A model generated the notes under the pieces. It searched no databases. It was not told where the DNA came from and was given only the letters and a program-made list of their open reading frames with translations. The position numbers and the translations under genes are program-made. A stretch of DNA of 32,866 bases from Trichormus sp. ATA11-4-KO1. GTDB lineage: Bacteria > Cyanobacteriota > Cyanobacteriia > Cyanobacteriales > Nostocaceae. Of this stretch, positions 22,601-32,866 are shown piece after piece (within the stretch, counting starts at the first letter, position 1; each line of letters starts with the position of its first letter). The stretch covers positions 1 through 32,866 of the forward strand of contig JAHHIM010000041.1 of assembly GCA_019358915.1 (NCBI GenBank), given 5' to 3'.

Positions 22601-25600
22601 GTGTGACTGAGCAAATAGCACCAAATGGTACGCACCTAATTTACAGCGATAGTGGGATTACTGGTTCCACTGGCGAGACGGTGCGTTTTGTTAAGGATGA
22701 TTTAGGCAGATTAACGCAAATTACAGCGCCAGATGGTAGTTTGGTAACTTATACTTATGATGCTCAAGGTAACTTGGTATCAGCCCGTAATCTCGCATCT
22801 GGTGACTCACACCGCTACGGTTATTCTTCCCTCCCTCACTCCCTCCTTACCCTAGCAACAGGAACACCGGGAACACCAGGATCAGCAATTAGCTACTCTA
22901 AAAATACACCGCAAGTATCAACCATCAACGCTGATTTGGGTGGTGCGGTATTGTGGAATGGTAATACTACAAGTTCAGTTGGCAACGAACGCTATACTTT
23001 TAGTTTGCGCAATAGCGAACTCAAGTCTACTGCTACAGGTGTTGTGTTGGTTGGAGTGGATATCACTGGGGGTGGTGTTTCTGTTCTCAATGGTTTGACT
23101 CCGATCTCAGTATCAGGTGGTTATTCACTGTATGCAATTGATCAAGCTGGCTTGAATCTGCTGCAAGTTGCAGGTAATGGCGCGTATGACTGGCAATTGG
23201 CGATCGCGGGAGATGTCAACCGCGATGGTAATGTGGATGGGGTCGATAGTGGATTGTTAGAGGGGGCGATCGCTTCTGGGGTTTACAATACTACCTACGA
23301 CTTCAACCGTGATGGTGTCATCAATGCTACTGATGTGCAGATTCTCGGTAGTAATTATGGGTTTACCGTCAATCGTGCGCCTGTGGTGACGCCAAAACAG
23401 ATATTAACCCATGTTGATTTAAATACTACTGTGGCACTGAATGGGTTAGCGACTGACCCAGAAGGGGATGCGGTGTTCTTCCGCATTGTGGGTGCAGAAA
23501 ATGGCACGGCGAGATTTACGCCTGATGGCAAGTCGGTGTTGTTTACGCCAAATGATGATTACTTCGGCGCGGCTAGTTTTAGCTTGGTTGCAGATGATGG
23601 CTACAGTATGTCTGCACCTGTGAAGGTGGATGTGAATGTTAGTAATGCGGCGTTGGTGAATCTGGACTTTGCACGGCGTGGTTTGCGTTTGGATGCTCTT
23701 GAAAGTGCTGATTTATTAGTAATTGGCGATTTTGCCGACCAACAAAATGTCATACTGCCTTATTCATATTTGCAGTTGGCATCGGATAATTCTGCTGTCG
23801 CCTCAGTATCTCAGGGTGTGGTGACTGGGTTAAGCGATGGTGTGTCAGTGCTGAGTGCTTACAGAGATGGTATTACTGCTGTGACGGCATTGCGTGTGGG
23901 TGAACTGGGTACACCTACGAATCAAACTGAGTTTAATTTGGCATTGGCTGAAACGAATGGATTAAACGTATATCCGCAAGCTGTAACGCTGGTAGAAGGG
24001 GTGAAGCGTCAAATTCTTGTTGGTATCAATGAGGTTCTTGATTCGCCAGATTTGAGGATAGCAACTTCTGGTACTCGTTATTTTGTTAGCAACCCCAATA
24101 TATTGCAGGTAACACCAGATGGGTTAATTACTGCAATAGATGAAGGGGTAGCGTCGGTTACGGTGATTCATGGTGCAACAGAATATGTGCTGCCTGTAAG
24201 CGTAGAAATTCCACATTTGAATTCAGCAGTGCTGGGTAAAGATGGTGGTGCAGTGCAAGCAATTGATGGATCAATGGTCATGGTTGCGCCTGGGGCGTTA
24301 AAAGAAAATGCAACTGTTAGTATAGAAACCGTTAACAAAAACCAACTTGCACTATCAGCTTTAGAAGAAAACTATACATTTACTGGAGCATTTAAGTTAG
24401 ATGTTGGAGAAAGCCAACTTAACATACCCGTACAACTAGCTATTCCAAATACATTTGGAGTAGAGGTTGGCAAAGAAGTATTTTTCATGAGTCAAAGACA
24501 ACTACCTGATGAAAATGGTGTATTACAGCCAGCTTGGTTTATAGAAGAATCAGGAATTGTTGGTGCAGATGGACTAATTCGCACTCAATCACCACCTTGG
24601 AACGGAGTTGTAGAATCCAAAACATACGCGGTAATGGTTCCGAAGTTTTCATATCGTGTTGTGAATGCACAAATTCCAGCTGATTGGATAACTGGTATTG
24701 GTATAGCAGGTATAGCTTTAGCGGTAGGAGGTACATACATTGCAGTTGCTGGAGGTTCTGCTTTGATTGCAGGTGCATCTGTAGTTGGCGGTCTTGGAAT
24801 ACTTGCAAGTCCTTTTATCTTCCCCGATAGATTTGAATCAGCAACAGAGCTGATTGATACAGTCGATGTTGTAACATATCCAGTTATTGAGTTGCCTTAT
24901 ATAACTAAAGCAGGGATTGCTTTAAACCTTGGTCAGTTATCGTCACAATCAAAAGTTCCAATTGCTCAAGTCAAACGACCTACCTCACAACCTCCTTTAG
25001 CTTCAACACCAACTATCGAAAAGTTAGAGGTAGATTTTGATGATAAAGAAGGAGCTTTTATTCGAGTTACTGGTCAAAATTTAAAATCAGTTCCAAAAGA
25101 CACGGAGCTAAATCAGGATAATCAACAATCGACTGACAAATTAGTTTTTGAGTTAGAGTATGGTAACAAAATATATCGACAAAGTGAAGTAGAAACTGCG
25201 GATATTAATAGTATTAGTGAGCAAGTGTTTACTTTCCGCTTACCAAACCATATTCCAGTTAGCGAAGACCTCAAAATTACTGCTATTCGACAGGTTAATC
25301 CTGTGATTGGCCCCCCACAAGAAATCAAAAGCCAGACGCTTTCAGCAATATTCAGTTCTTTTGACCGTGTTATTGCGACAAATCCATTGTCAGGTAATGT
25401 CCAAATCATGAATGCAAAGAACGCTCCAGGGGTTGTTGCGGAGTTTGGTAGTCAAAATCTCTTACTAGCAACTATTCCTTTGGGTCAACAAACGCGACCG
25501 CGCTATTCAGCTGCTTTGGATGATAGAATCTACGTCCCTTTAGAGGGAAATCGTTCCGTTGCTGTCCTAGATGCTTTAGGGTTGCGAGAATTAGATACTA

Positions 25601-28600
25601 ACCCTGAAACACCGCAAATTGACCGTATTTATCTACCTGCTGGTTCTAGCCCTTCTGCAATTGTTTTTAGCTCTGATAAATACTACGCATACATTGCCGA
25701 TCGCAATTTGGGTGCAATATATGTGCTTGATGTTAATCCTAATTCACCAAATTACCATAAACACATTGGTACAATCCAAGTTCCTGAGTCGAAAGGTGTT
25801 CACCAACTAGCTATCAATAGTGATGGTACTTTACTGTTTGCCACAAGTCCAAATACAACATCAAATAAAGGTGAGATTACAGTTATTAATATCGAGCCTA
25901 GCGCCCGTTCACAAAGTTTTCAACAATATAATCGCATCGTCGAAACGGTGAAGACGGAGGCTGGCGTTACGGGAATCTCTGCAACAGAAAATCCCGATGT
26001 AATGTTCTTTACTAATCGTTATCAAGATGTACAAGGATTTGGTCAGCTAACTGTTAAACAAGATTTAAAAGGTAGCATCTCTTCTGAAATTGTGACTGCC
26101 AAGTTAAATCTTGGCAGCGTCTTTGATTATTTTGATGTGAATGAAGCCATCGCTGTAACAATGTTGCGCGACCAAAAGACTGGGATTGAATATGCTTTTG
26201 TTGCGGGACGTAACGGTCGTCAGTTTGGTAGCGGTATTGAAAGTATTGATGGGCAAGGAGCAGGAAGCAATGTTGGTATTGTTCGCATTGCTCCAGGTCA
26301 AGCACCTGAACTTGTTGCTGCTACCCGACCAATTCCGATGGGGTTAACTAGTTCGTTGACACTATCGGATGATAATTCCTACCTTTATGTTGCCAACCCT
26401 GGTGTAAATTCCACCTTTGTTTATGATGTGAATGAGATGATCAAAACTGTAGAAGCTGCTAACAACAGAGAACAGTTAAAGTCAAAACCTCTTGATGAGA
26501 TTAATCCACTTGTGGGAATAGCAACAAATATTCAGCAAGGTTCAGATCAAAATAGACCAATTGGTGCAGGGGCATCTTGGGGTACAACTTCACACGCTAA
26601 AGACCCGCAAATAATTTCTGTTAAGCCTGAAACTGAATATATTCCTGAAGCAGAAGAAGCACTGCGTAAAATTCGGTTTAAGTTTGGAGTTGATCCCATA
26701 TTTAGTCCGCTAGAACAAACATACGCATCCGCAAAACCAGTTGTTGAAGCAATTGCAGAAACAATTTTTGGTGAACCAGCCCAAGCACAACCACAACCAG
26801 TAATAATACCGAAGCCTTTACTAAGACCAATTCCATTCCCCAAAATTTACCCAAAACCGACTCAGTTTGGAAACCCCATAATATTCCCGAACCCAGGTCC
26901 AATCATCATCCCAGATCCAAACCTTGATCCAAATCCTAACCCACAAACGGACAAACAAACTCAGATTGATGAAATTGAATTTTTCCTCAGTACTTTCCCA
27001 GAGAATGAAGGGTTAATTCCAAAAGATTGGACTCCTGCACCCTTAGAAAGTGGTAGAGACTATAATCCCAACCGGATTATTTCTGCTCAATGGTCTAAGG
27101 GTAAATGGACTGGGAAGGATAGCCAAGGTCAAGAAGTTACTAATGATGGTTCTTACGATGAATTTACTTTGCCTGCTGACCGAATGTTAACAGCAGGACA
27201 AACTTACTACTTGGCAATGGTATTTAAGGGACGTAAAGGAAGCGAAGCATTTACAAAAAGATTTACAGATGTTTATAAAGTACCTATTTCGCAACTTCCT
27301 ACCCAACCTTCAATAGATACTTTTAGCAACGTTACAATTCTTACCCCAGGAATTGAGACAGATGCACAAGAATTTGCCAGTGCTGGTTTAGAAAATATCG
27401 CTAGAAAAGTAGCGGCAAATGGTGGAGATGTATTCCGGTATGTTGCAAATACTGGAAAATGGCAACCTGTACGTTACTTTTTCCCAACAACAGAACTTGA
27501 CCAACAACAGCAACAAGCAGATCATCCAAAAGAATCTTCAAAAGGTAGACCTTTGGTTCTTTTGGCAGATTGGACACGAGATATCGAACAGTCGCAGCTC
27601 TATAATTCAGGCTTTGCAGAAGCTGCTGCTGATAGTTTCTTTGCTTCACTAGTAACACTGGATCAAGAACTTGGTGGAAGTGTTGGAAGTTATGATAATT
27701 TTGGGAACCTCAAGCGCACCCAAGGTTCGCTATTCAACTCGCCATTGCACTTTATTGGTTATGGTCAGGGGGCAGTTGTTAATTCCGAAATTGTACAACG
27801 TTTGGGAACCTTTTTCCCCAATGCTGGAGGCCGCGATCGTTCTAAACGTGATTTACAGGTTACTGTGATTGATCCTATTGTTTATGGTCAATCTTCTTTC
27901 GAGCCACAATTGCGGAATATCCTCGATCCAAGAATTACTACTTGGCAGAATGTAACTTATGCTGATACTTATTTCCAGAATAATGCTGGAGAGAATCCTT
28001 TCCCAACATTACCTCAGTCTGATTGGGAAACTGATTTGAGTGATCGTGCTAGTTTTGAGTTAAATAATGGTACATTCACACCTCATAAAACAGCGTTAAA
28101 TTGGTACACTGGAACAGCTAATTTGACTCAAGGACTTGGCACAAATCGTTACCGTCGTTTGGGTGATTTACTATCAACTGGTATTGAAGATTATGAAAGA
28201 ACTTGGTACACCCCAAATCATACACAAGCCAATTTAAAACATGGAGATGAAGATGCTGCATGGGAAGGGATTGGTACTGGCTGGTTTACTTCTGTATTAG
28301 GAGGTGGATTTAATTATCGTCCTTATGGAGATACCAGCCAGAAACTTGGTAAACAGCAACTAGATACTGCATACTTTGAGCGCAATCGGACTCCAGTTTC
28401 TCAAGATAATACTGCCGATCCTCGATTGCGCGGTGACTTTGCTGTTCCTACGCTGTTTAATGGTAATTTCGATGCGATTTCCGCACAATTGGATCAAGAT
28501 ATTCCTGGTTGGAATTTCCAAGATTCTAGAGGTATTAACTCACAAAATAATTTGGTGTCCGGTATTGCAGGAAATCAAAGCATAGCTTTGAGATTAGATA

Positions 28601-31600
28601 CTCAGCTAAATAGTATTACGCATAACCAATTTGTAGTTCCTGATTGGGGTGCGTTGCGGTTTGATTTGCATGTGCCAGTTCCCGATTCTGTTACTGATTC
28701 TCAAAATAGTGTTGTCAGAGTTTTTCTTGACAACTATGAACTACGAAGTTCCGCTTTTCAGGGATTACTTAGAAAAGACCAGAAAAGAAACAATAATGAC
28801 GTAGATTATACTGACGACGGATATCCTGCTGTTGACTTGCGGCAATATAAAGGCAATCTAGGTGCTAGAAACGGAGAGGGACAATCTAACAGAATTAGTT
28901 TTGCAAAAGAAGGATTTCAAACTTTTCAAGTCGATATTCCTAATGAATTTCGTGGCAAAGTAGCAACTCTCAAATTTGAGTTAAGTGGAGGCAAAATAGT
29001 TTACTTAGATAACGTTTTCTTCAAGAGTCAACATCTATTATTTGGTAATCCACAGATGCTAATAGATGGTTCAAATAGACAAGAAGCGAGAAAAGATATA
29101 GATACTCCTAAATTCACTACTAGTTACAACCCCTATATCCCCACAGATCCTCCAAGTAGCTTTTCTAATAACTATCTGATTGAAAGACCTCAGTATTCTT
29201 TGTCATACAACAATGATTTAAAGACACCAAATTGGGTCAGTTATCAATTAAATAAATCTTGGCTTGGTGCTGAGAATGATAGACCCAGCTTTGCAGGAGA
29301 TCCCCATTTACCCTTTGCAATTCAAGTTGGTGAAAAGGATATTCCTGAAAGTAGTGGTTATGAGAGAGGGCATATGACTACTGCTAATCACCGTAATCGC
29401 AATGAACAGGATTATGTAGCAACTTTTCTGATGAGTAATATCATTCCTCAGCCATTACGTTACTCAAAAGACTCTAACGGGAAAGAACTGGAAGGTCAAT
29501 GGAATAAGCTAGAACTATATTTGACTGATTTAGTTCAAACTTATAATAAAGAACTTTACATTATTGCAGGAAGAGAAGGAGTAACTTTTAAAACTATAAG
29601 TTCAAAGGTTAGCGTTCCTGAAAGTATTTGGAAGGTTGTACTAGTTCTAGATCGTCCTGGTCAAGGAATTTCCGACGTAACTAAAGATACCCTCGCTTTT
29701 GGTATTTATTTACCCAACACCCTTGATGTAAATGGTAAAGGGCAAGATCCTAATGACGATTGGAAACAAAACTTTACACTTGACGGAAAGACATTTGGAC
29801 TATTTAATGTTGAAGAACTTGAAAAGCTAACTGGGTATAATTTCCTGTCTAATATTCCCACAGAAATTCAGAAAGCAATTGAAAACCGTGACGTTAATGA
29901 TATTTTCACCAGACTAAATGTCATTAAACCTACTTCCCTGATGGCTGCAATAGAGGAAGAGAATCTATTTCCATTTCCAGTAAGGACCCCTTTCAACACT
30001 ACCACTGGGCATAGTGGTCTCCCAAATCAAATTACCGAACCTACAAATATTAGTCTCCAAGACGTCAGCCGAACGAAAGTTAGCATGAGCCAAAATGGCA
30101 TAAGAAAAGCCACCGATGTTAGCTCCACAGAAGGTAGCACGACTAGCGTTCATATGATTCAGGTCGGTTCCCCTCAAATCGGCTTCAGTCAAATCACACC
30201 AACTCAAGTTGGCGGAATACAAATTAGCATCCCTGACAATAGCGCGTTTCAACCAAGCGCTTTCCAAGGAAACACCAAACAAATCGGCTCCAGTCAAATC
30301 GGCTCGACACAGATCGGCTTGTCTCAAATAGGCTCCGCGCAAGTTGATATCTCTCAAAATAGCGCCTTCGAGGTCAATCGAACTGTCGAGGGGAACACCC
30401 TCAGATTGAATCAACTCAATCCCTCGAAAATCGCGCTCTCCATCAGCATACCGAGCCAACAACTCCTCAGCAGTTATTTCCCAAACCATAATTTAACCTC
30501 CAACTTATTTTCCGATCTTAAATATAGTGCTACTGATCTGTGGCCATCCCTTTTCGACCCCACCTTAAACATCAACCTCCAAATAACCGACCTCCCCACA
30601 GGACAACTAGCAGAAGCCCAACTAACCCAATTCGACCCCCAAGGTCGCCCTAACGGAGGCACAATCCTCATCGACCACAACGCAAACGGCATCGGCTGGT
30701 TCATCGACACCACCCCGCTTGATAACAGCGAATTCACCACCACCCTCACCGACACAGCCTACCGCGCCACCACAGGCGAAGCATTCGGCAAATACGACCT
30801 GCTCACCACCATCCTTCACGAAACAGGACACCTATTAGGTATAATCAACGGCAACCCAGGCTTCGACCGCTACATCCAAACCATCAACAGCACCAAAACC
30901 TTAATAGGCAACAACTTCACCGCCACCCTCACCCCAGACGGTAGCCACCTTGACTCCCAGGTACACCCCTACGACCTGATGAACAACACCCTAGCCCCAG
31001 GCGTGCGTAAGCTACCATCATGGCTCAACCTACAAATGATTAACGCCATCCGTTCCCAGGAGTGGGGGAGTGGGGGAATGGGAGAGTGGGGGAATACCCT
31101 ACAAGCACCACTAACCGCGATACTCCTTGCAGACATCACCAACGGCAACTTCACCGAAACCAACACAACCAAACCCGAATACGGCTGGACAACCCGTGGT
31201 GCAGCCACCATCCTCAATCAAGAAGCCATCCTCACCGAAGACTCCCCCTTACTCAGCAACTTCACCCAAACCTTCATCATCCCTGAACACGCCAAATACC
31301 TCCAATTCACCCTGAAAAACACCACCTTGGGAGCAAACACCTCAACCACCCCAGGTGACGCCTTCGAGGTCGCATTACTCAACCCCAACACCAAACAATC
31401 CTTAATCAACACCAGCCAAGGACTCAGCCACACCGACTCCCTACTCAACATCCAAAACGACGGCACATACTACACCAGCAACAAAGTCACCTTAGTCAAC
31501 ACCACACCCAACAGCACCCTTACCCTCAACCAACCACTCACCTTTAAAGTAGACCTCACAGGCATTCAACCAGGAACCGCCGCCACCCTCTACTTCGACC

Positions 31601-32796
31601 TCCTCGGTTTCGGAGCCAGAGATGCCAAAGTCATCCTCGACAACGTCATGCTACTCGACAATGACTTTGTCGCACCAGTCGCCAACAAAGACACCGCCAC
31701 CACCAACCAAACCCAACCAGTTACAATCAACATTCTCAGCAACGATACCGACACAGACAGCAGCATCAACCTCACAACCCTGTCCATCACAACCAACCCC
31801 AACAACGGGACAATCCAACTAAATCAAGATGGCACAGTCACATACACCCCTAACCCCACCTTTGTCGGCACAGACACCTTCACCTACACCATCACCGACA
31901 CAGAAGGCTTAACATCTAATACTGCCACCGTCAACATCACAGTCAACAATATAGCCCCAGTGATCACAGTAATTACAGGCGACACCACCACCACCGAAGG
32001 CACAACAGCCAACTTTAGTGCCACAGCAGTTGACCCTGGTGACGAACTGACCTACCTCTGGAACTTTGGCGACGGTTCACAATTGGTGGAAGGTGAAAAT
32101 GTTACCCACACCTACACCGACAACGGTACATACATCGCCACCCTGACTGTTATCGATAGTCTTGGCGTCAATAGCTTCCAAACCCTAGAAATCACCGTCA
32201 ATCATGTCGCGCCTCCAGAAATTACCAAACTCAAATTCGAGCAAAAACTACTCCATCTCAAAGTTTACGAAAATTCCCAACTAGTAGAACATGTTAAAGG
32301 CAAACAAAATCAACCAGTATCACCCCTAGCCTTGGACAGAATCCAAATACTCGCCCTCAACAGCAATGACCAATCCCAGATATTTGATGACATCACCTTC
32401 CATGATAGTGGAGAAGGTATTGGCATCACCGACGGAGAAGACGGTAACAAAGCACGTAAAAAGCGCATTGATGGTGATGAAATTTTACAAATCAAAATCC
32501 CACCTACGGATAAATACAACAGCGCCAAAACTGCCTTCGTTACCGTAGATCAAGTACAATCCACCACAAATAAAACCATTGGCGGTCAAGTGAAAATTGT
32601 GGCACTACGCGGTGCCACAATAGTTGGAGAACAAACTTATACCCTTACCGACAAAAACCAAACACTCACATTTACCAACACTACAGCCTTCGACCGTCTG
32701 CACTTAATGGCTGGAGACGAAGATACTGAATTTACCCTCAGAGGATGTTTGAAAAGTTTTAGGGAGTCAAAAATTAAGCCAATCGCTTCACCATAA
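1666..32796 (+). CDS. Giant multidomain extracellular protein (10,376 aa; CARDB/cadherin/RHS-like adhesin with peptidase and nuclease domains); native C-terminus disrupted by an IS
   Basis: Uninterrupted 31.1-kb frame with recognisable repeat and enzyme motifs throughout. The last 17 aa (GCLKSFRESKIKPIASP) and the stop codon are read from the IS end that starts at 32741. Confidence 0.95.
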   Translation: MSGMNELFPNFDSQLMNDGSIMPVMEDPFKLSQGMEISPNNPPTLPVGSPSTDIIVIDTPSSSTYFGEQPSNITPVPLFFQPNSSDTPTNSFDLITGTKSDDQLVGFLSKDEVISSSLSVTSQVGEDNINQQQPDQLSSITSVLSEIDNHQSFHQLTPEILEIFRQEAIARWASLGITPGEQGILQQVQLAIADLPGYQLGWTQGYVVTIDTDAAGAGWFIDLTPADDVEFSNIVSASELHSIESDPAFGRVDLLTVINHEFGHILGLDHLDSHQVMNPTLLIGTRHLPTQESLEVTRATEPVNAALELNLPTISASNGTVTGYLSTNDVINPTRNGRYSDDYQLIDFTVGKLVTLDLSSSNFNTYLQLINADTGQIIAYDDDSGYGANSLLRFTPVDGIKYIVRTTSYSSGVTGTYTLIVTVGRPDLVVTDATAPITAPERSTISLTWTVTNQGEAVATNNWYDYVYLSDNTVLDSSDRYMGNLWNGDKIPLALGASYTASTNMALPERVGAGKQYLLFVADRDNYLVEESETNNVRAVPIEITVPDLVVTEATAPVAVTVGSSAEISWTVLNQGSVQATHRWYDRIYISNDQTFDGSDTQVGGFDSGIPGTPLGAGDTYTLTKTVTIPKTALGSRYLLFVADANNNQYETNETNNIKAIPVQVNAPDLIVSDASAPTTVALGEQITVNWQVTNQGNVTADADWYDYFYLSDDQILDGSDDYITYKWTGDKTPLASNTSYTTTHNITIPTYAKAGNRYLLFVADRDNYQGETNENNNVYSIPININAPDLSISNPQAPKTANPGDSIDVSWTVKNIGDITTNNGWYDHVYLSYDSVYDYSDTYLIKHYNSINLIQDHSYNITESVTLPSDGIGSPGRRYLLFITDIYNYQKETNEDNNVVAIPITLNGENADLAISAVTAPTQAVVGQKIPIELTVTNQGSLTTSSYYWYDYVYLSNKPTLDDSAVYLDSIYSAYYNSYQPLAPGANYTVKQDINLPSNIYGHQYLLFVAEGDNYLDDADRSNNVKAVPIKIDAPDLVISNATTPAQGDAGAQIEVSWTVQNQGNGSAFPPQGYYYYAYLFDSVYLSDDNTLDISKDTLLKDVKTEKLLPLDSGNSYTVTQLLSVPNNVTKGNKYLLFVADRQNRLSELNENNNVKAIPFSIVDPDPNLPLLQTGSPVQNQNSPQFVTNPNTATYTPLAGSSATGLLGQYYVLGGNVTTFPDFSTLQPTYTKVDPQVNFDFEGDSFAGIPGLTNNFAARWTGKINIATAEDVTFYLSKDYYTNSGNRLYIDGQLVIDNQGYYQQEASKTINLTPGEHDLYLEFFNNIHYYGGVSLSYAPMGSNKQVIPSSILTPTAVTPPANLPDLKISNVAAPSLIAPGQTISTTWIVTNQSSNSTQSNWYDKVYLSDDTTFDSKDTFFAGFDGRTNSPLVAGDNYIQTQNINIPTNIELGNKYLLFVTNPDNTEIESDRTNNAYALPVTITNPDLIVTEATAPATAADREQITVSWTVKNQGNVPTNAYNWYDSVYLSDNTVFDSSDRYMGNLWVSDNLATGETYDKSENFTLPERTGSGKWYLLVITNTSNYQAETSDTNNVYAIPIEITVPDLTITTSSTPTTAAVGETVSVSWTVKNLGDVSAAADRYDSVYLSNDPNFEATDTYVTDFYRSGSSPLAAGASEVRTGNIIIPHSQLGDRYLLFVGDRTNSQSETDETNNIWATPITITAPDLIVSDVTVPIAAELGETVSVSWTVTNLGDVVALRDWYDRIYLSDDLIFDNSDQYVTQKWISNQTPLAAFSSYQIIQNVSLPTYTKVGNRYLLFITDHSNYQGETNEKNNIKAVPIYIKAADLVVTDASTSTNTVTPGSTLELAYTVKNQGETATVNNSGRWWWDKGGWYDRIYLSYDQVYDGADTELANRWISPTPILAADGIYTFSNISVTLPNNTIGQPGSRYLLFIADKDNYQSETNESNNVKAIPITITGDNADLEVTAATAPSVVTTQQTVSISWTVKNTGALTASADWYDSVYISNDTTLDASDTKLRDQWVSSPTPLAANGQYNLTSDSTIPQGRTGNQYLLFVADSYNYQGELNQLNNVRAVPITVQAPDLVVTDATAPVKTYPGTQIEVSWTIKNQGNTSAHADWYDRIYLSDDATLNTSQDTLLKEVWTGNLTPLKIGDNYSVSQLLTLPSTTPIGSRYLLFVADANRAQGESDDNNNIKAIPITIGDNDPDLIVTTATASSTAVLGETITVNWTVLNQGNIEASTDWYDTIYLSDDETLDNSDVAVSSQSVADKIPLAVNATYNFNRNITIPNTTTGNRYLLFVADAGKQQSERDETNNVRAVPITLTAPDLVVSDASSTVETATWGETIQVFWTVTNTQTVTAAANWSDQIYLSDDTILDGTDKFVATFSAASHAPLAGNSSYTQTNKSIIIPTNSGTGSKYLLFVTDANDAQGETDNNNNVKAIPFEVQSPNLQVTDINAPTTATWRESINVSWMVTNQGTGAALADWWDYVYLSSNPTLDSSDTYLGNLSAANQSPLASGSSYTQSRNVTIPSVTPGTWYLLFATDNNGNQQAESNETDNVGAIALEVKAPDLVISAVTAPTSSILGATIPVSWTVTNQGTGAALADWWDYVYLSANPTLDGNDTFLGNLWTGRETPLAAGASYTVGRNVTIPNVAEGTWYLLFAADRDNYQSETDNNNNVKAVTIELGAPDIELTAATAPTTASALETIQVGWTVTNIGNIVAPADWSDYIYLSDDATFDGNDIQLGYLSAADKTPLSAGTSYTQTLNVTIPGTVRGNKYLLFVADRHNIQGESNESNNVRTLQLTVNAPDLIVFDATAPNRAILGETIDVSWTVTNSGSGSAFTKWYDSIYFSDDTNFDASDTYVADFWTAEKTPLAPGASYNLAKKITVPNTATGNRYLLFVADRTNNQGETNENNNVQAIAITLGSLDLIPTITSSPAIATSGTTVSLEWTVNNAGSAAATGNWVDRIYLSTDNKFDTSDLLLKERHFDGSLSSGSSYQAQVDLDLPINVNGSYYLLVATDANQQVIELNREENNIAASLINIELAPYADLAISNVTAPTLTIGDPAQVTIDWTVTNIGTGIGNTNTWVDRIIASKDSIIGNSDDIVLASFSNPKALNVSENYTRSEKLRLSPGFQGQYQLFVQTDATGVVFENNLEANNTIAADHTFSVVSIPYADLVVDAVQVQETASSGQKMQVSWTVANNGIGITNTNSWSDRVSLATDPEGKNIIANLGSFELLGALAVGGTYNRSVDVTLPNGLTGTYYLVVTTGGPFEFIYTHNNSRVSNAVSVTLTPPPDLVVTNVTSPTTTVQSGSKIDVSWSVENSGTGNATGTWVDSIFIREVGNVNGQLISLGNFTFGNGLQAGKSYTRSEQFFLPSTLQGLYEIVAKTNASNSLYEHGATGNNTITATNPILLSLAPRPDLQVKEIIAPTTANAGGTISLEFIVANEGTIGTTTPNWQDRVYLSLDDKISHDDLSLGSFSNAAALGSLESYRTQANTLVIPKYFRGEAYLIVQTDAAGQVDEYPQESNNQKAVKLNINSLPPADLVTSNVVAPTQAFAGSQIKVRYTVTNLGIGETDRDRWTDTIWLTRDKNRPSPANREGSAEDILLTSIGHNGSLKVGEKYEAEVDVTVPGQVTGEWYITAWSDAYNVVLEDTLDINANPDDPTELDNNNYKARPITILLTPPPDLVVTSVTPTTQGLGGQPFSVTWTVQNQGANGTAQSNWVDYVYLSDSPTLNAPEAKQWFLGSVGHSGSLGVNETYTLKLDTVLAPGASGRYIIVQTNPNGSVWEGPYTNNNLLTANTNVTSTPADLTVTNVKILPQNFSGERTTVEWTVQNVGSDIWSGTRYWYDEIWVSPDPTFILSRATKVGFVPYSSQQSLRTGDSYTQRQDITLPAGIDGEYYIYVSTDYSYNYDTRKFRGEIPRSGDNNSYRQSFEYRVYEDPGNNLGSTPLTVTYKEPDLQITNLVLPETSPTSGQTISVNWTVSNTGTRDTRETFWYDRLYLSRDESLDFNDTLLGEFTRRGGLQQGQSYAGSSEITLPDGIAGNFYLLVFTDSNVSQGYSKLSFEGNPTLARVPEFQDEGNNIIAAPLTVTLQPPPDLQVTSVRIPERATTGQTFNLEYTVENKGSGNTPSRQNRWNDLIYLSRDEFLDLQSDRYLGYTEHTDGLNAGSSYTVNKTLQLPNDLTGSYYVFVITDAPQNNVRGHVFEGNNEGNNAQPSAQPLILQLPPPADLQVDEITIPATAKSGDSIQISWKVTNYGDNPATGQWSDAVYLSEDAIWDINDRAIGRVSYSGILATDAAYTSTLTANLPPATPGQYRIIVRPDIFNQVYEAENEANNRTTSADPLNVTVEQLQLGVPFNTILNTGQERLFQINLQAGQTLRINTTSSATDAANEVFVRFQSAPTSIIYDAAYTGELGANQSVVIPTTKSGTYYVLVRGYSQPSNNTPISLLADVLPFGITDAIADRGGDSRYVTTNILGAQFQPGAIVKLVRPGIAEYIPVKSQVINSTKITAIFDLTNAPHGLYDVKVINPDGREAILPYRYLVERAIEPDVTVGLGGPSVLAPGDFGTYGVSVQSLTNIDTPYVHFSIGTPELGINSDVFNLPYTEFSSNLRGNPEGVLSDVPWASLISDVNTNGEIIAPGYVLDLPNAGFVGRTFNVQTYPGLQAELAKDSKALEDVPDDAIAFRFHILATATAMTRDEFVQEQTQQALLLRNAILKDQTASPALTVLIADANTWTNAYLAALEEAGLLRKEDEAPTIRENPQVISLMATLATGLLLGPAGNEIISNGNLVSFFEQIRKWYGHNPSLRGQELPPDPQQFDLGLSHTTHVQSFNVYVPFGDARVDLPQGASVPPPNFASFFNAAGTTNNLATLTGPVGFGAENIVPLGAALPYTIRFENAATASTAVGEVRIVTQLDSDLDPRNFQLGGLRLGDIQVHIPAGRATFSGDFDFIRSKGFILRVSAGLDVISNTATWLIQAIDPNTGEVMQNPNIGLLPPNNANGVGSGFVTYSVLPFAGSATGTEITTEARVIFNTAAPMDTAQVTNIIDGVAPTTALTVTPLVAGGSDYLVNWTATDDTAGAGVKHVTVYVAEDGGDFKIWQQQTTETSAVYSGRAGHTYEFLALATDHAGNREQPGLGISAPSDGFQVNLGTLPTVEKTTQPDLGTLPAPKPEPSTNQLFLEAKQGIPAVAPATNPSEFKSVLRPFTAAAFATGIPTSHANIAPLAITVLEDGSVLASGGANRGSLYRFDKDGEIGGGGDRGQNSPTPIATLEHPIFDLALDNNATLWATTGGGPLLQLDLQTGKVVKQYGNSITQALAIQSETGLIYVSSGKGIEIFNPQTETFTHYSDLRVDSLAFAPDGQLWATTWPERGDIVRFDEQGKAQRMLSFDSPVDSIAFGMKGTHLEGLLFVSNNNGNLVMVDLATLQQVTVASGGSRGENITTTADGRVLLSQSHQIDVFSPLVAPQVKATNPPPDAIVALPQGTISITFDSDMFIGAANDTASVLNPANFELVSASDRFTPQSVRYDAQTLTVLLDFNTITPDHYELRVSQNLKSIAGAELIGGYKEQFTAISDFSALVDFQFNNARSHRANETISYDVTLKSKADSDLLLPVMLVLDPSQYFTGVPTGATRNPTGAYMIDLRDNLPEGVLKRGQSTTSRTITVYNPDALRVEFTPGIYALPYPNQAPIVTSAPVLTAYSGQSYTYQVAANDPDGAVLGYLLYDAPQGMKIDSNGLITWTPTQLSPASSNVTLQVYDLRGAKTTQTFSLNVVGGNHKPVFNTPVVSGGTVEEGNFSSNSATGMTVRGAEGKTLQIKVAATDADQDKLIYWADNLPGSAVFDLSTGILTWTPSYTAAGTYENVQFIVSDGIERVTQTATILIAPTNQAPTFTRPADRIVREGEKVRIQLQATDADITDAVSSLSPSLLTYNSNLLPGGANLDPRTGLFEWTPAYFQAGEFEIPFTVSDGESITTQITKITVLNVNAAPVFDNLGTWQVQEGQEVRFRAFAFDPDNPGFVPQDRNADGQLTILEGSDPSVTYTVSGLPDGATFDPVTAMFIWTPGYASTGTYNVAFTATDDGNGTPTSKSAEVTVPISVLNSNRAPQISEFTNITLNRGEVQELIIRVTDADNDPLVLQLQPESTGYNIPDFVRFTDNGDGTATLRLTPSANDGGDYSFTLTASSDNGNGGGANAIHSDEYTFIVTVNAPNDPPKLPFIGNKVAVVGDTLEFLVKASDRNQDNLSFNLSGLPADAILTPTAIYGEALFQWTPTVAAIGTYPVTIAATDSGNGHPSEILSSQQEFNLVVRTSNTAPTLSTIANSSVAEGQTLSLVFSSTDADGDSISYSASNLPPGAVLDPVQGILTWTPNSSQAGIYNNISLIASDGNKSSSQSLAILVNNTNQAPVLAPLPIQTGQENNLVQFTLTAGDIDNDSLIYSAVSPLPTGAVFDARTGQFTWKPNYEQAGEYVLKFAVTDAQGASDVRDVTLRVSNVNRNPAISVSNHAVALGETLRFTVVGTDPDNGTNLTYSAVDLPDGAILDAATGQFTWTPSPGQVGDYTITYTVADGEVTVTQTSLVRVAVAPTPPTVTLDLTPSFPAVPGQKVIVQTLASGLAEITNLTATVDGKAVTVDSQGRIEFVPTIPGRLIVDVIATDADGRVGYNSTVVKVRDPEDQDAPIVAFAAGLDGAKLTAVTDIIASVNDSNLDNWVLEIADFGEEAYRTLASGNGAVSDRTLAQFDPAKLENGFYQLRLRATDISDRTSSTQVVVEANSATNKSAYVRSETDLSVNLGGNNINLVRTYSSLNTSDVGSFGYGWQLANVDTNIQTNVPLTGRESLGVYEPFRVGTRLYLTTPTGERIGFTFAPQKQTIPGLTYYTPTWVADSGVNYTLSSADAKLTLAGNRLYDLKTGHAYNPASGSYGGAEYTLTAADGTVYYLSTSRGVTEQIAPNGTHLIYSDSGITGSTGETVRFVKDDLGRLTQITAPDGSLVTYTYDAQGNLVSARNLASGDSHRYGYSSLPHSLLTLATGTPGTPGSAISYSKNTPQVSTINADLGGAVLWNGNTTSSVGNERYTFSLRNSELKSTATGVVLVGVDITGGGVSVLNGLTPISVSGGYSLYAIDQAGLNLLQVAGNGAYDWQLAIAGDVNRDGNVDGVDSGLLEGAIASGVYNTTYDFNRDGVINATDVQILGSNYGFTVNRAPVVTPKQILTHVDLNTTVALNGLATDPEGDAVFFRIVGAENGTARFTPDGKSVLFTPNDDYFGAASFSLVADDGYSMSAPVKVDVNVSNAALVNLDFARRGLRLDALESADLLVIGDFADQQNVILPYSYLQLASDNSAVASVSQGVVTGLSDGVSVLSAYRDGITAVTALRVGELGTPTNQTEFNLALAETNGLNVYPQAVTLVEGVKRQILVGINEVLDSPDLRIATSGTRYFVSNPNILQVTPDGLITAIDEGVASVTVIHGATEYVLPVSVEIPHLNSAVLGKDGGAVQAIDGSMVMVAPGALKENATVSIETVNKNQLALSALEENYTFTGAFKLDVGESQLNIPVQLAIPNTFGVEVGKEVFFMSQRQLPDENGVLQPAWFIEESGIVGADGLIRTQSPPWNGVVESKTYAVMVPKFSYRVVNAQIPADWITGIGIAGIALAVGGTYIAVAGGSALIAGASVVGGLGILASPFIFPDRFESATELIDTVDVVTYPVIELPYITKAGIALNLGQLSSQSKVPIAQVKRPTSQPPLASTPTIEKLEVDFDDKEGAFIRVTGQNLKSVPKDTELNQDNQQSTDKLVFELEYGNKIYRQSEVETADINSISEQVFTFRLPNHIPVSEDLKITAIRQVNPVIGPPQEIKSQTLSAIFSSFDRVIATNPLSGNVQIMNAKNAPGVVAEFGSQNLLLATIPLGQQTRPRYSAALDDRIYVPLEGNRSVAVLDALGLRELDTNPETPQIDRIYLPAGSSPSAIVFSSDKYYAYIADRNLGAIYVLDVNPNSPNYHKHIGTIQVPESKGVHQLAINSDGTLLFATSPNTTSNKGEITVINIEPSARSQSFQQYNRIVETVKTEAGVTGISATENPDVMFFTNRYQDVQGFGQLTVKQDLKGSISSEIVTAKLNLGSVFDYFDVNEAIAVTMLRDQKTGIEYAFVAGRNGRQFGSGIESIDGQGAGSNVGIVRIAPGQAPELVAATRPIPMGLTSSLTLSDDNSYLYVANPGVNSTFVYDVNEMIKTVEAANNREQLKSKPLDEINPLVGIATNIQQGSDQNRPIGAGASWGTTSHAKDPQIISVKPETEYIPEAEEALRKIRFKFGVDPIFSPLEQTYASAKPVVEAIAETIFGEPAQAQPQPVIIPKPLLRPIPFPKIYPKPTQFGNPIIFPNPGPIIIPDPNLDPNPNPQTDKQTQIDEIEFFLSTFPENEGLIPKDWTPAPLESGRDYNPNRIISAQWSKGKWTGKDSQGQEVTNDGSYDEFTLPADRMLTAGQTYYLAMVFKGRKGSEAFTKRFTDVYKVPISQLPTQPSIDTFSNVTILTPGIETDAQEFASAGLENIARKVAANGGDVFRYVANTGKWQPVRYFFPTTELDQQQQQADHPKESSKGRPLVLLADWTRDIEQSQLYNSGFAEAAADSFFASLVTLDQELGGSVGSYDNFGNLKRTQGSLFNSPLHFIGYGQGAVVNSEIVQRLGTFFPNAGGRDRSKRDLQVTVIDPIVYGQSSFEPQLRNILDPRITTWQNVTYADTYFQNNAGENPFPTLPQSDWETDLSDRASFELNNGTFTPHKTALNWYTGTANLTQGLGTNRYRRLGDLLSTGIEDYERTWYTPNHTQANLKHGDEDAAWEGIGTGWFTSVLGGGFNYRPYGDTSQKLGKQQLDTAYFERNRTPVSQDNTADPRLRGDFAVPTLFNGNFDAISAQLDQDIPGWNFQDSRGINSQNNLVSGIAGNQSIALRLDTQLNSITHNQFVVPDWGALRFDLHVPVPDSVTDSQNSVVRVFLDNYELRSSAFQGLLRKDQKRNNNDVDYTDDGYPAVDLRQYKGNLGARNGEGQSNRISFAKEGFQTFQVDIPNEFRGKVATLKFELSGGKIVYLDNVFFKSQHLLFGNPQMLIDGSNRQEARKDIDTPKFTTSYNPYIPTDPPSSFSNNYLIERPQYSLSYNNDLKTPNWVSYQLNKSWLGAENDRPSFAGDPHLPFAIQVGEKDIPESSGYERGHMTTANHRNRNEQDYVATFLMSNIIPQPLRYSKDSNGKELEGQWNKLELYLTDLVQTYNKELYIIAGREGVTFKTISSKVSVPESIWKVVLVLDRPGQGISDVTKDTLAFGIYLPNTLDVNGKGQDPNDDWKQNFTLDGKTFGLFNVEELEKLTGYNFLSNIPTEIQKAIENRDVNDIFTRLNVIKPTSLMAAIEEENLFPFPVRTPFNTTTGHSGLPNQITEPTNISLQDVSRTKVSMSQNGIRKATDVSSTEGSTTSVHMIQVGSPQIGFSQITPTQVGGIQISIPDNSAFQPSAFQGNTKQIGSSQIGSTQIGLSQIGSAQVDISQNSAFEVNRTVEGNTLRLNQLNPSKIALSISIPSQQLLSSYFPNHNLTSNLFSDLKYSATDLWPSLFDPTLNINLQITDLPTGQLAEAQLTQFDPQGRPNGGTILIDHNANGIGWFIDTTPLDNSEFTTTLTDTAYRATTGEAFGKYDLLTTILHETGHLLGIINGNPGFDRYIQTINSTKTLIGNNFTATLTPDGSHLDSQVHPYDLMNNTLAPGVRKLPSWLNLQMINAIRSQEWGSGGMGEWGNTLQAPLTAILLADITNGNFTETNTTKPEYGWTTRGAATILNQEAILTEDSPLLSNFTQTFIIPEHAKYLQFTLKNTTLGANTSTTPGDAFEVALLNPNTKQSLINTSQGLSHTDSLLNIQNDGTYYTSNKVTLVNTTPNSTLTLNQPLTFKVDLTGIQPGTAATLYFDLLGFGARDAKVILDNVMLLDNDFVAPVANKDTATTNQTQPVTINILSNDTDTDSSINLTTLSITTNPNNGTIQLNQDGTVTYTPNPTFVGTDTFTYTITDTEGLTSNTATVNITVNNIAPVITVITGDTTTTEGTTANFSATAVDPGDELTYLWNFGDGSQLVEGENVTHTYTDNGTYIATLTVIDSLGVNSFQTLEITVNHVAPPEITKLKFEQKLLHLKVYENSQLVEHVKGKQNQPVSPLALDRIQILALNSNDQSQIFDDITFHDSGEGIGITDGEDGNKARKKRIDGDEILQIKIPPTDKYNSAKTAFVTVDQVQSTTNKTIGGQVKIVALRGATIVGEQTYTLTDKNQTLTFTNTTAFDRLHLMAGDEDTEFTLRGCLKSFRESKIKPIASP
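2131..2532 (+). other. Domain: metzincin/matrixin-like zinc metallopeptidase (copy 1)
   Basis: HEFGHILGLDH (2443-2475) matches HExxHxxGxxH and is followed by a Met-turn-like VMNPTL; preceded by IDTDAAGAGWFIDLTP. Confidence 0.8.
2617..2931 (+). other. Domain: PPC (pre-peptidase C-terminal)-like beta-sandwich
   Basis: D.Y...VTLDLSSSNFNTYLQLINADTGQIIAYDDDSG...YIVRTTSY...TGTYTL pattern typical of PPC domains. Confidence 0.75.
2941..14802 (+). repeat. About 30 tandem CARDB (Ig-like) repeats of roughly 120 aa
   Basis: Consensus PDL.V....AP......G..I.VSWTV.N.G......W.D.VYLS.D...D..D......YLLFVAD......E.NE.NN; 30 unit starts counted by eye from 2941 to 14446, period about 360-400 bp. Confidence 0.9.
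5281..5724 (+). other. Domain: PA14 (carbohydrate-binding), inserted between CARDB units 6 and 7
   Basis: GLLGQYY...DPQVNFDF...NNFAARWTGKI...RLYIDGQLVIDN...LTPGEHDLYLEFF...KQVIPSSIL is the PA14 signature. Confidence 0.85.
17425..18156 (+). other. Domain: beta-propeller (NHL/SMP-30-like blades)
   Basis: Repeated blade motifs DLALDNNATLWATT, ALAIQSETGLIYVS, SLAFAPDGQLWATT, NITTTADGRVLLS. Confidence 0.65.
18829..21516 (+). repeat. Nine cadherin-like / putative Ig (He_PIG) repeats
   Basis: Units N.AP.......EG..L......D.D.D.L.Y....LP.GA..D..TG.F.WTP...Q.G.Y starting near 18829, 19099, 19429, 19726, 20077, 20401, 20704, 20977 and 21253. Confidence 0.85.
22129..22827 (+). other. Domain: RHS N-terminal (DUF6531-like) motif plus only 2-3 YD repeats
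   Basis: DLSV...INLVRTYSSLN..VGSFGYGWQL, then DDLGRLTQITAPDGSLVTYTYDAQGNLVSA; no long YD array and no DPxG core end seen. Confidence 0.7.
23209..23361 (+). other. Domain: dockerin type I-like (two Ca-binding loops)
   Basis: GDVNRDGNVDGVD ... DFNRDGVINATD duplicated F-hand motif. Confidence 0.85.
23371..24600 (+). other. Domains: cadherin/Big_9-like, two Big_2-like and a ZU5-like module
   Basis: NRAPVV...ATDPEGD...FTPNDDYFGAASF...DDG; SDNSAVASVSQGVVTG; SNPNILQVTPDGLITA; GKDGGAVQAIDGSMVMVAPGALKE (ZU5-like start). Confidence 0.6.
24685..24822 (+). other. 46-aa uncharged Gly/Ala-rich hydrophobic segment (two-helix hairpin)
   Basis: WITGIGIAGIALAVGGTYIAVAGGSALIAGASVVGGLGILASPFIF contains no charged residue. 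Confidence 0.75.
25363..26430 (+). other. Domain: YVTN/YncE-type beta-propeller
   Basis: PSAIVFSSDKYYAYIAD, QLAINSDGTLLFATS, SLTLSDDNSYLYVANPG blade motifs. Confidence 0.7.
27319..28116 (+). other. Domain: alpha/beta-hydrolase-like fold with a degenerate nucleophile elbow
   Basis: VTILTPG ... LADW ... LHFIGYGQGAVVNSEIVQRLG ... VTVIDP ... ADTYFQ ... H order of motifs; the elbow reads GYGQG instead of GxSxG. Confidence 0.6.
29032..29889 (+). other. Domain: DNA/RNA non-specific endonuclease (NucA/Serratia-type beta-beta-alpha-Me)
   Basis: HLLFGNP, NYLIERPQYSLSYNN, NWVSYQLNKSWLG, SGYERGH (ERGH at 29362-29373), ATFLMSNIIPQ, WNKLE, KELYIIAG, KVSVPESIWKVVLVLD, VEELEKLTGYNFLSN are colinear with Anabaena NucA as I recall it. 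Confidence 0.92.
29965..30489 (-). CDS. Pentapeptide-repeat protein (174 aa), fully nested antisense within the giant ORF
   Basis: Typical cyanobacterial N-cap AEELLARYADGERDF, tandem A(D/N)Lxx units (ADLCR ADLTG ADLFG ... ANLYS ANLSW CDLTE ADLRG), C-cap TTMPSG, GGAGG 7 nt before the ATG, TAG stop at 29967-29965. Confidence 0.9.
   Translation of the reverse strand: MVWEITAEELLARYADGERDFRGIELIQSEGVPLDSSIDLEGAILRDINLRGAYLRQADLCRADLTGADLFGVSLESAWLKRAIVRDANLYSANLSWCDLTEADLRGTDLNHMNASRATFCGANIGGFSYAILAHANFRSADVLETNICRFGNLIWETTMPSGSVERGPYWKWK
30496..30501 (-). promoter_or_regulatory. Shine-Dalgarno site of the nested antisense gene
   Basis: Minus strand reads ...AAGTTGGAGGTTAAATT-ATG; GGAGGT is a perfect anti-SD complement at suitable spacing. 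Confidence 0.8.
30565..31050 (+). other. Domain: zinc metallopeptidase-like (copy 2), homologous to the N-terminal copy
   Basis: ITDLPTGQLA...IDHNANGIGWFIDTTP.D.SEF...AFGKYDLLTTILHETGHLLG (HExxH from 30817)...DGSHLD...DLMNNTL.PGVR. Confidence 0.75.
31061..31092 (+). repeat. Four tandem G-rich octamers within the reading frame
   Basis: AGTGGGGG AGTGGGGG AATGGGAG AGTGGGGG, encoding part of EWGSGGMGEWGN, set in otherwise very G-poor sequence. Confidence 0.75.
31672..32202 (+). other. Domains: cadherin/Big_9-like repeat followed by a PKD domain
   Basis: APVANKD...INILSNDTDTD...YTPNPTFVGTDTFTYTITD; then LTYLWNFGDGS....VTHTYTDNGTYIATLTV (PKD WDFGDG-type motif). Confidence 0.85.
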
Positions 32797-32866
32797 TACG
32801 GATCATTGCAAGGTAGAGAAAGGTTTCTGAAGTTTCGGGCAATAATTCATAATCTCTGGCCAATCG
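32741..32866 (-). mobile_element. IS5-family (IS1031-like) insertion sequence, right end; continues beyond the window
   Basis: Terminal sequence GAGGATGTTTGAAAAGT (32741-32757), preceded by TCA (32738-32740, fitting the TNA target of the IS1031 group); transposase C-terminus on the minus strand. Confidence 0.88.
32774..32866 (-). CDS. IS5-family transposase, C-terminal 30 aa (partial)
   Basis: Minus-strand translation RLARDYELLPETSETFLYLAMIRIMVKRLA* matches the RL.RDYE...AMI..M..RLA end of IS5/IS1031 transposases. Confidence 0.9.
   Translation of the reverse strand, partial: RLARDYELLPETSETFLYLAMIRIMVKRLA

Follow-up and report, generated by a model that had tools for sequence, protein, structure and literature searches.

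A NucA-type nuclease domain and a nested antisense gene for a pentapeptide-repeat protein (PRP) were analysed in a window of 32,866 nucleotides (nt), which is the complete contig JAHHIM010000041.1 of the cyanobacterium Trichormus sp. ATA11-4-KO1. A single open reading frame (ORF) for a giant exoprotein fills nearly all of this window, and the PRP gene lies behind the nuclease, wholly inside the giant ORF (Table 1). With a probability of roughly 0.64, which rests on sequence comparisons, the giant is a polymorphic toxin carrier with the nuclease as its variable tip, and the PRP is its cognate cytoplasmic inhibitor, i.e. the immunity protein. A toxin-immunity cassette had already been proposed in an earlier sequence-only reading of the window. 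This part of the proposal was strengthened by an obligate association, by the tracking of cognate partners, by orphans and arrays, and by un-nested forms, whereas the overlap itself would not need to serve an internal effector.

Association of the nuclease with the pentapeptide-repeat protein

Homologous loci were searched with the second peptidase domain or the pre-toxin region of the giant as an anchor, and never with the PRP. Among the 401 genomes of the order, the first anchor matched in 31 and the second in 47. After removal of short partial matches, sequence duplicates, and three copies of this genome's contigs from the matches listed, 96 distinct full-length giant-type nuclease domains were retained, of which 95 have at least 400 nt of downstream sequence and were assessable. 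The loci come from many cyanobacterial families and plasmids. They are related and not independent, so the counts are descriptive.

A PRP gene is located at most 2.6 kilobases downstream of all 95 assessable nuclease domains, on the strand opposite the nuclease in 91 of them. It is nested in 41 loci, in one register throughout; Calothrix brevissima NIES-22 and Anabaena cylindrica PCC 7122 are cultured strains in which such a locus is intact. The carriers of the other 54 loci belong to the same giant family, but here the giant stops just past a C-terminal nuclease and the PRP is encoded by a separate gene, within 400 nt of the nuclease in 47 cases. Of these un-nested genes, 50 are convergent with the giant, in any phase (13, 18 and 19), and four are on the same strand. 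Arrays of two or more PRPs are found in 24 of the 54 loci. The control loci differ from this distribution. Among stand-alone nucA loci, a PRP within 1.5 kilobases was found in 0 of 29 and a convergent nuiA in eight of 29. Homologous loci without the nuclease had a PRP in 0 of 11 cases, including a cyanobacterial giant of 13,403 amino acids (aa). In these loci the same slot is occupied by PT-HINT with a tip, a lipase or a GH19-like domain in giants of other phyla, and by ART-PolyVal in one cyanobacterial locus. The idea that different effectors would be paired with different antisense ORFs found no support, as none was recognised in the non-nuclease homologues examined; GC-rich genomes yield many antisense ORFs that are uninterpretable.

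The PRP also follows the nuclease in its divergence. For 24 nested pairs, the identity matrices of nuclease and PRP correlate with an r of 0.74, compared to 0.11 for nuclease and peptidase, 0.15 for PRP and peptidase, and 0.47 for PRP and pre-toxin region. By rank, nuclease and PRP correlate in these pairs with a Spearman coefficient of only 0.33, and the closer pairs provide the signal. Loci whose peptidase flanks are 90-93% identical can carry nucleases of only 31-42% and PRPs of only 24-44% identity. When all 95 pairs are considered, the closest locus by nuclease is also the closest by PRP in 7/8 cases at more than 90% identity, in 38/51 at 60-90%, in 8/22 at 50-60%, and in 2/14 below 50%. 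Beside the peptidase, 39 full nucleases were found with a PRP and none without one, while 39 PRPs occur without a full nuclease and eight loci have neither. The dependence is one-way: full nucleases always come with a PRP, and the PRP persists without a full nuclease.

Two of these orphan cassettes are located in the genome of the window itself, each with nothing of the nuclease but its C-terminal end. The orphan PRP on contig C36 equals the window PRP in its first part, but its last 65 aa are identical to the cognate PRP of another strain at 57/65 positions and to the window's PRP at 34/65. One giant (locus L194, G069:C83) contains two modules of nuclease and nested PRP, the second of which is followed by an immunoglobulin-like (Ig) domain and not by the peptidase. 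Together, the genome comparisons demonstrate that nuclease and PRP behave as one exchangeable unit. A role of the PRP as partner of the peptidase was considered as well and is ruled out by the absent tracking and by the second module of L194, which has no peptidase.

Obligate association and co-divergence would suit any dedicated partner. The PRP could therefore be a chaperone or export adaptor without inhibitory function, which keeps the nuclease unfolded or loads it for secretion. This could explain why the PRP is retained beside nucleases with an atypical active site, and PRPs act as scaffolds or binding surfaces in other systems, as described in the available text of PMC8145042. Nevertheless, such a function is unlikely. 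A chaperone without its client would be useless, yet in the 39 orphan cassettes the PRP is retained although a full nuclease is missing, and diverse PRPs are arrayed behind single nucleases. Moreover, the PRP gene lies downstream of the nuclease, in the position that nuiA has after nucA.

Coding on both strands and the origin of the overlap

The nested protein matches PF00805 with an E-value of 1e-23 and 82.7 bits against a cut-off of 20.2. It has an Np275-like N-terminal helix (EELLxRYAxGERDF) and a C-terminal TxMPxG motif, and its closest relatives in the PDB are Np275-Np276 and their derivatives. With Np275/Np276, HetL, and MfpA/Qnr it shares the right-handed beta-helix family, and with Np275 also the N-terminal capping helix. 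However, it is far below the curated cut-offs of the HetL, MfpA, and Qnr families, and family-level similarity to MfpA/Qnr was not found (26-31 bits compared to cut-offs of 240-460). No match to the NuiA family PF07924 was found for the nested protein. Its stop codon is located about 75 nt beyond the end of the nuclease at base ~29889, up to which the NucA structures 2O3B and 1ZM8 match. Both positions agree with the earlier reading.

The two frames are codon-for-codon antiparallel, and stop codons on the forward strand therefore correspond to the PRP codons TTA and CTA for Leu and TCA for Ser. None of these is used for the 21 Leu and 12 Ser of the window PRP, while each of the 24 ordinary pentapeptide ORFs in this genome contains at least one of them (p ~7e-5 for the window alone). 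The nested stop-free run of 175 codons is the longest antisense run in this register along the giant, followed by one of 132. Since intact giants have no forward stop codons by definition, independent tests were used. The orphan cassettes, a set not selected for openness, are still open on the forward strand in 35 of 39 cases. GCA, which makes a Cys on the other strand, is used for 10 of 752 Ala in the 41 nested PRPs compared to 190 of 1250 in the 54 un-nested ones. The same applies to ACA, with five of 371 Thr compared to 144 of 643. Only one of the 54 un-nested PRPs is free of stop-making codons. PRP-synonymous changes outnumber giant-synonymous changes in 10 of 10 close pairs, which marks the PRP as the more constrained frame. 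A word resembling a Shine-Dalgarno sequence is present at the distance seen for the nested gene in 15 of 24 nested copies, but in only 1-4 of the 24 when any of five control windows is inspected instead. A scan for promoters and terminators remained at chance level, and no promoter site was found for the nested gene. A search of sequencing runs listed no RNA run that contains the locus. Codon use thus demonstrates, as far as sequence can, that the PRP gene is real, that both strands are under selection, and that the forward strand is read through the PRP gene. A shadow ORF on either strand was considered as an explanation and is ruled out by the codon purging relative to the controls and by the comparison of synonymous changes in PRP and giant.

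The linker that results from the forward reading has no Pfam match. Its structure model has a predicted local distance difference test (pLDDT) score of 43 and is uninformative about a second beta-helix fold, and a protein search with the linker as query gave six matches, none of them new. It shows five-residue periodicity and amino-acid selection. This would fit the possibility that the overlap is kept as a spacer and that the PRP is a passenger or a generic DNA mimic, with protection provided by NuiA in trans or by secretion. Net acidity was seen for 89 of the 95 PRPs, and the genome of the window does have NuiA: no nuiA gene is present in the window, as had been noted before, but an ordinary pair of nucA and convergent nuiA is located on contig C13. 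However, this explanation is very unlikely. The PRP is equally obligate in the 54 un-nested loci, where it has no spacer role, and its frame is the more constrained one. Furthermore, NuiA was detected in 14 of 20 module-bearing genomes, including two weak matches, and not found in the other six. NuiA can contribute in some genomes, but it is not a general substitute.

The nested protein had been called compatible with DNA mimicry in the earlier reading, based on about 25 acidic (D+E) and 17 basic (K+R) residues. The counts were confirmed, and net acidity proved to be general. However, the nucleases are acidic too, and the partner tracking suggests specific recognition, for which a generic mimic would have no need. 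Mimicry is therefore not needed as an explanation and is weakly supported; partner-specific divergence suits specific binding better.

Nested and un-nested forms are intermixed in the nuclease tree (FastTree, with weak support for its deep branches), which has 25 changes of layout compared to 31 when the labels are shuffled. Sister loci of different layout keep the cognate PRP, with 62% PRP identity between L013 and L205 and 55% between L010 and L219. Of 28 aligned sites with a stop-making codon in the un-nested sister, 21 have the same residue encoded by a different codon in the nested copy. The layout has thus changed several times while the partner was preserved. In several un-nested sisters of nested copies, the use of TTA and CTA is low (0.04-0.24 compared to 0.36 overall). 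This hints that some un-nested forms may derive from nested ancestors, with genome composition as a confounding factor.

A possible route to the overlap can be described on this basis. In the un-nested form, the ORF ends past the nuclease and the PRP gene lies tail-to-tail behind it, as nuiA does behind nucA. For the nested form, the peptidase and an extension of Ig, PKD, and Calx-beta domains would have been added in frame by read-through over the PRP gene. Since the only forward stops come from TTA, CTA, and TCA codons of the PRP, which can be removed synonymously, the overlap would cost the PRP no amino-acid change. The sequence-only reading had argued instead that a normal downstream immunity gene could not sit beside an internal effector, with about 950 aa following the nuclease, and that an antisense gene within a linker would keep the pair on one swappable cassette. 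The length was nearly right, as ~968 aa of the giant lie C-terminal of the nuclease, but the overlap need not have arisen for an internal effector: the same pairs of nuclease and partner exist un-nested, and nesting seems to be read-through over a neighbour that was already there. Export genes that would point to nesting forced by a C-terminal secretion signal were not established. A more general proposal is that the cassette switches repeatedly between side-by-side and nested antisense arrangements through synonymous Leu/Ser recoding, and that the PRPs are specific nuclease inhibitors of a toxin-immunity system that is widespread in cyanobacteria but unannotated. For this proposal as a whole, the odds are about even. 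In public annotation, only the giant is listed when it is intact, and the PRP is listed when the giant is broken. For this reason, neighbourhood-based searches for immunity genes miss the nested layout.

Evidence on an immunity function and relation to known systems

The nuclease domain matches PF01223 with an E-value of 1e-35, and its structure model matches 2O3B with an E-value of 8.5e-22. The catalytic His and the conserved Glu are invariant across the homologue alignment. In the proposed mechanism, the PRP would bind and block the nuclease before its export or upon its delivery from a neighbour, with the specificity mostly in the variable C-terminal third of the PRP. The flanking zinc peptidase could free the nuclease by cutting at an xxLLA motif. 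The motif is found after the nuclease in nested copies (Table 1), a similar one follows the second peptidase at 31105-31134, and a function as processing site is possible. Orphan PRP cassettes might guard against the nucleases of other strains and serve as donors for recombination. As judged from these comparisons, the loci show the genomic signs of a polymorphic toxin, namely a variable tip on a conserved carrier, an ever-present and co-varying partner, and orphans and arrays. A complex prediction for nuclease and PRP with alignments of 22 rows scored 0.01, which speaks neither for nor against an interaction.

Several observations weigh against the immunity reading. The loci depart from the usual layout with a C-terminal toxin and a co-oriented immunity gene: the toxin is internal in 41 loci and C-terminal in 54, and a convergent orientation is unusual among immunity genes of polymorphic toxins. 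When all pairs are ranked, nuclease and PRP correlate only modestly (Spearman 0.32-0.33), and co-inheritance of adjacent genes gives congruent trees without physical interaction. PRPs with the same N-terminal motif also occur unlinked in this genome, so the subfamily is not confined to these loci. NuiA is encoded elsewhere in this genome and in 14 of the 20 tested. The active site is a further point. We assume the placing of the metal-binding Asn of the H-N-N motif in NucA numbering. An Asn five residues past the conserved Gln is present in 83 of 95 homologues and not in the window's copy, L013 and L010 have the canonical site, and the usual position of the metal-ligand Asn is missing in 10 of 95, the window's clade among them. 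The last Asn of the H-N-N motif is described as binding the metal in the available text of PMC3025545. In the window's clade, an insertion near this position holds Asn, Asp or Glu, in a loop where model confidence is low. The window's nuclease may thus have weak or altered activity or none at all, even though the PRP is conserved.

Finally, the locus analysis identified neither a route or signal for export nor delivery into other cells. This would also agree with an alternative in which the nuclease is indeed inhibited by the PRP, but the giant acts as a surface adhesin and breaks down extracellular DNA for nutrients or for biofilm and sheath remodelling, so that the producer is guarded and no competitor is killed. 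The carrier consists mostly of Ig-like, CARDB, PKD, and Calx-beta domains, and NucA-NuiA is such a self-protection pair according to the available part of PMC13522737. The extreme diversity of nucleases between conserved flanks, the PT-HINT and ART swaps, and the orphan PRPs that match foreign nucleases are, however, signatures of conflict between strains and make this alternative improbable.

The NucA-NuiA pair of Anabaena PCC 7120 (1ZM8, 2O3B; PF01223, PF07924) resembles the immunity arrangement proposed here in its nuclease fold and in an inhibitor gene downstream on the opposite strand. It differs in that the nuclease of the loci described here is a variable domain of a giant and that the partner is unrelated to NuiA and lies inside the toxin ORF in 41 loci. 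Polymorphic toxins with Tox-NucA domains, as presented in the available text of Zhang et al. 2012 (PMC3482391), are similar in their conserved carrier, variable tip, adjacent partner, orphans, poly-immunity arrays, and peptidase and RHS domains. There, toxins are C-terminal with immunity genes on the same strand, whereas here an internal position of the toxin and a nested partner on the antisense strand are possible. The immunity families listed for Tox-NucA in that part of the text are Imm36, SUKH, and NTF2, with no mention of cyanobacteria or the word 'pentapeptide'; the supplements and the last part of the paper may hold more.

Pentapeptide-type proteins adjoining nuclease-like toxins have been described before. 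GH-E His-Me toxins occur beside YjbI-like pentapeptide genes, which are not called immunity genes in the accessible sections of PMC5714182. For Tse6-Tsi6a of Stenotrophomonas, Tsi6a is presented in the portion available of bioRxiv 10.64898/2026.07.13.738213 as a putative immunity protein that is structurally similar to a pentapeptide-annotated antitoxin. Both cases involve other toxin families and ordinary genes on the same strand, and the immunity function of Tsi6a is only predicted there. Np275 itself is without known function, and no role as nuclease inhibitor is named for PRPs in the available text of PMC8145042. A full-text literature search, which left most subscription journals outside, found no description of the locus, and neither a PRP that inhibits NucA nor an immunity gene nested in antisense was reported.

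Long antisense genes that are fully nested are rare and contested in bacteria, and the best published cases are young ORFs without known function. The genes olg1/tle3 and olg2/PA1383 of Pseudomonas aeruginosa share with the nested PRP purifying selection and a complete overlap on the antisense strand, in the directly opposite frame, and one of them is located inside the effector gene tle3 (PMC8850804, in the part available). They are described there as young, species-restricted overprinted ORFs of unknown function, and immunity is not mentioned in that part. In contrast, the nested PRP belongs to an old family found in many cyanobacterial families, would be functionally tied to its host gene, and has un-nested counterparts. 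Because a known family is nested in dozens of divergent genomes with un-nested forms as controls, selection on two strands and the route to the overlap become directly measurable. If the more general proposal made above is true, it would provide a function for a large part of the cyanobacterial (Np275-like) pentapeptide family, which is an old open question. It would also add a new inhibitor class for nucleases of the NucA/EndoG type and a natural, repeatedly used route to the complete overlap of two old genes.

Layout of the giant and further observations

Table 1. Positions of the features of the giant ORF and its nested gene in the window.
Feature	Position	Strand	Remark
Giant exoprotein ORF	1666..32796	+	10,376 aa
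Conserved pre-toxin region ending in FFKSxHLxFGNP	27316..29025	+	Upstream of the nuclease in nested and un-nested forms
NucA/EndoG-fold nuclease domain	29026..29910	+	His codon of the GH motif at 29371-29373 and WxxxE at 29497-29514, both kept
Ser/Gln/Ile-rich linker, forward reading of the nested gene	29911..30540	+	Cys and stop codons purged
PTSLMAA (xxLL/LMA motif)	29929..29949	+	Such a motif follows the nuclease in 31 of the 41 nested copies
Nested pentapeptide-repeat gene, 174 aa	29965..30489	-	Wholly inside the giant ORF; proposed cognate nuclease inhibitor
Shine-Dalgarno sequence GGAGG	30497..30501	-	7 nt ahead of the nested ATG
Second zinc-peptidase-like domain	30541..31065	+	HETGH at 30817-30831; conserved flank anchoring the cassette and orphan copies
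~130-bp repeat	32737..32866	unassigned	Also at the ends of contigs C17, C4, C24, C36, and C1

The giant starts with a matrixin-like peptidase, followed by more than 20 CARDB domains, PA14, He_PIG/Big_9, an RHS/YD repeat, a dockerin, and a beta-propeller. The pre-toxin region, the NucA domain, the linker of 210 aa, the second HExxH peptidase, and Big_9/PKD (Ig/PKD) domains complete the order. The whole protein contains one Cys. No Pfam match was found for the pre-toxin region, for which an alpha/beta-hydrolase is a weak lead only (Atlas 0.82). The window's giant is probably truncated at its 3' end, since its last ~18 codons are read from the ~130-bp repeat and 751 aa follow the start of the peptidase, compared to 1312-2044 aa in 13 homologues (560-1290 aa shorter). 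The repeat could mark an assembly break or an insertion. Upstream of the giant, at 690-1421 on the forward strand, a gene for 243 aa without a Pfam match is located. Its Atlas cluster is automatically named putative TIGR04255 family and is mostly cyanobacterial, and genes of similar size are located upstream of the giant in two plasmid homologues.

PRPs with the same ELLxRYAxGERxF start are encoded unlinked on contigs C5, C13, C18, C36, and C60 of this genome with ordinary codon use, and they are possible distant orphans. The nested PRPs of L018, L020, and L039 consist of two tandem units with 300-345 aa, and the other strand is stop-free or nearly so. Hints of type I export are present in the alphaproteobacterial loci L046-L048 and L053, where DUF3467 and a gene for an efflux adaptor come after the giants, and in one Nostoc locus with a peptidase-domain ABC transporter.

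The slot of the nuclease was also inspected in other homologues. In the Undibacterium locus L049 (52-11061 and 11173-12264), an internal PT-HINT with a tip occupies the same slot and another PT-HINT gene is located downstream, with no nested partner recognised. The metagenomic homologue L068 (4501-6000) has an internal Rhs-core-like motif and a tip immediately ahead of the peptidase. In L252 (437-1900), an ART-PolyVal-like tip comes after the pre-toxin region, with repeats of tip fragments and small genes on the same strand behind it, and there is no PRP. The pre-toxin region is duplicated in L133, together with one nuclease. On an Anabaena cylindrica plasmid (L163, 4605-21422), type III-B CRISPR-Cas genes are located directly upstream of the giant.

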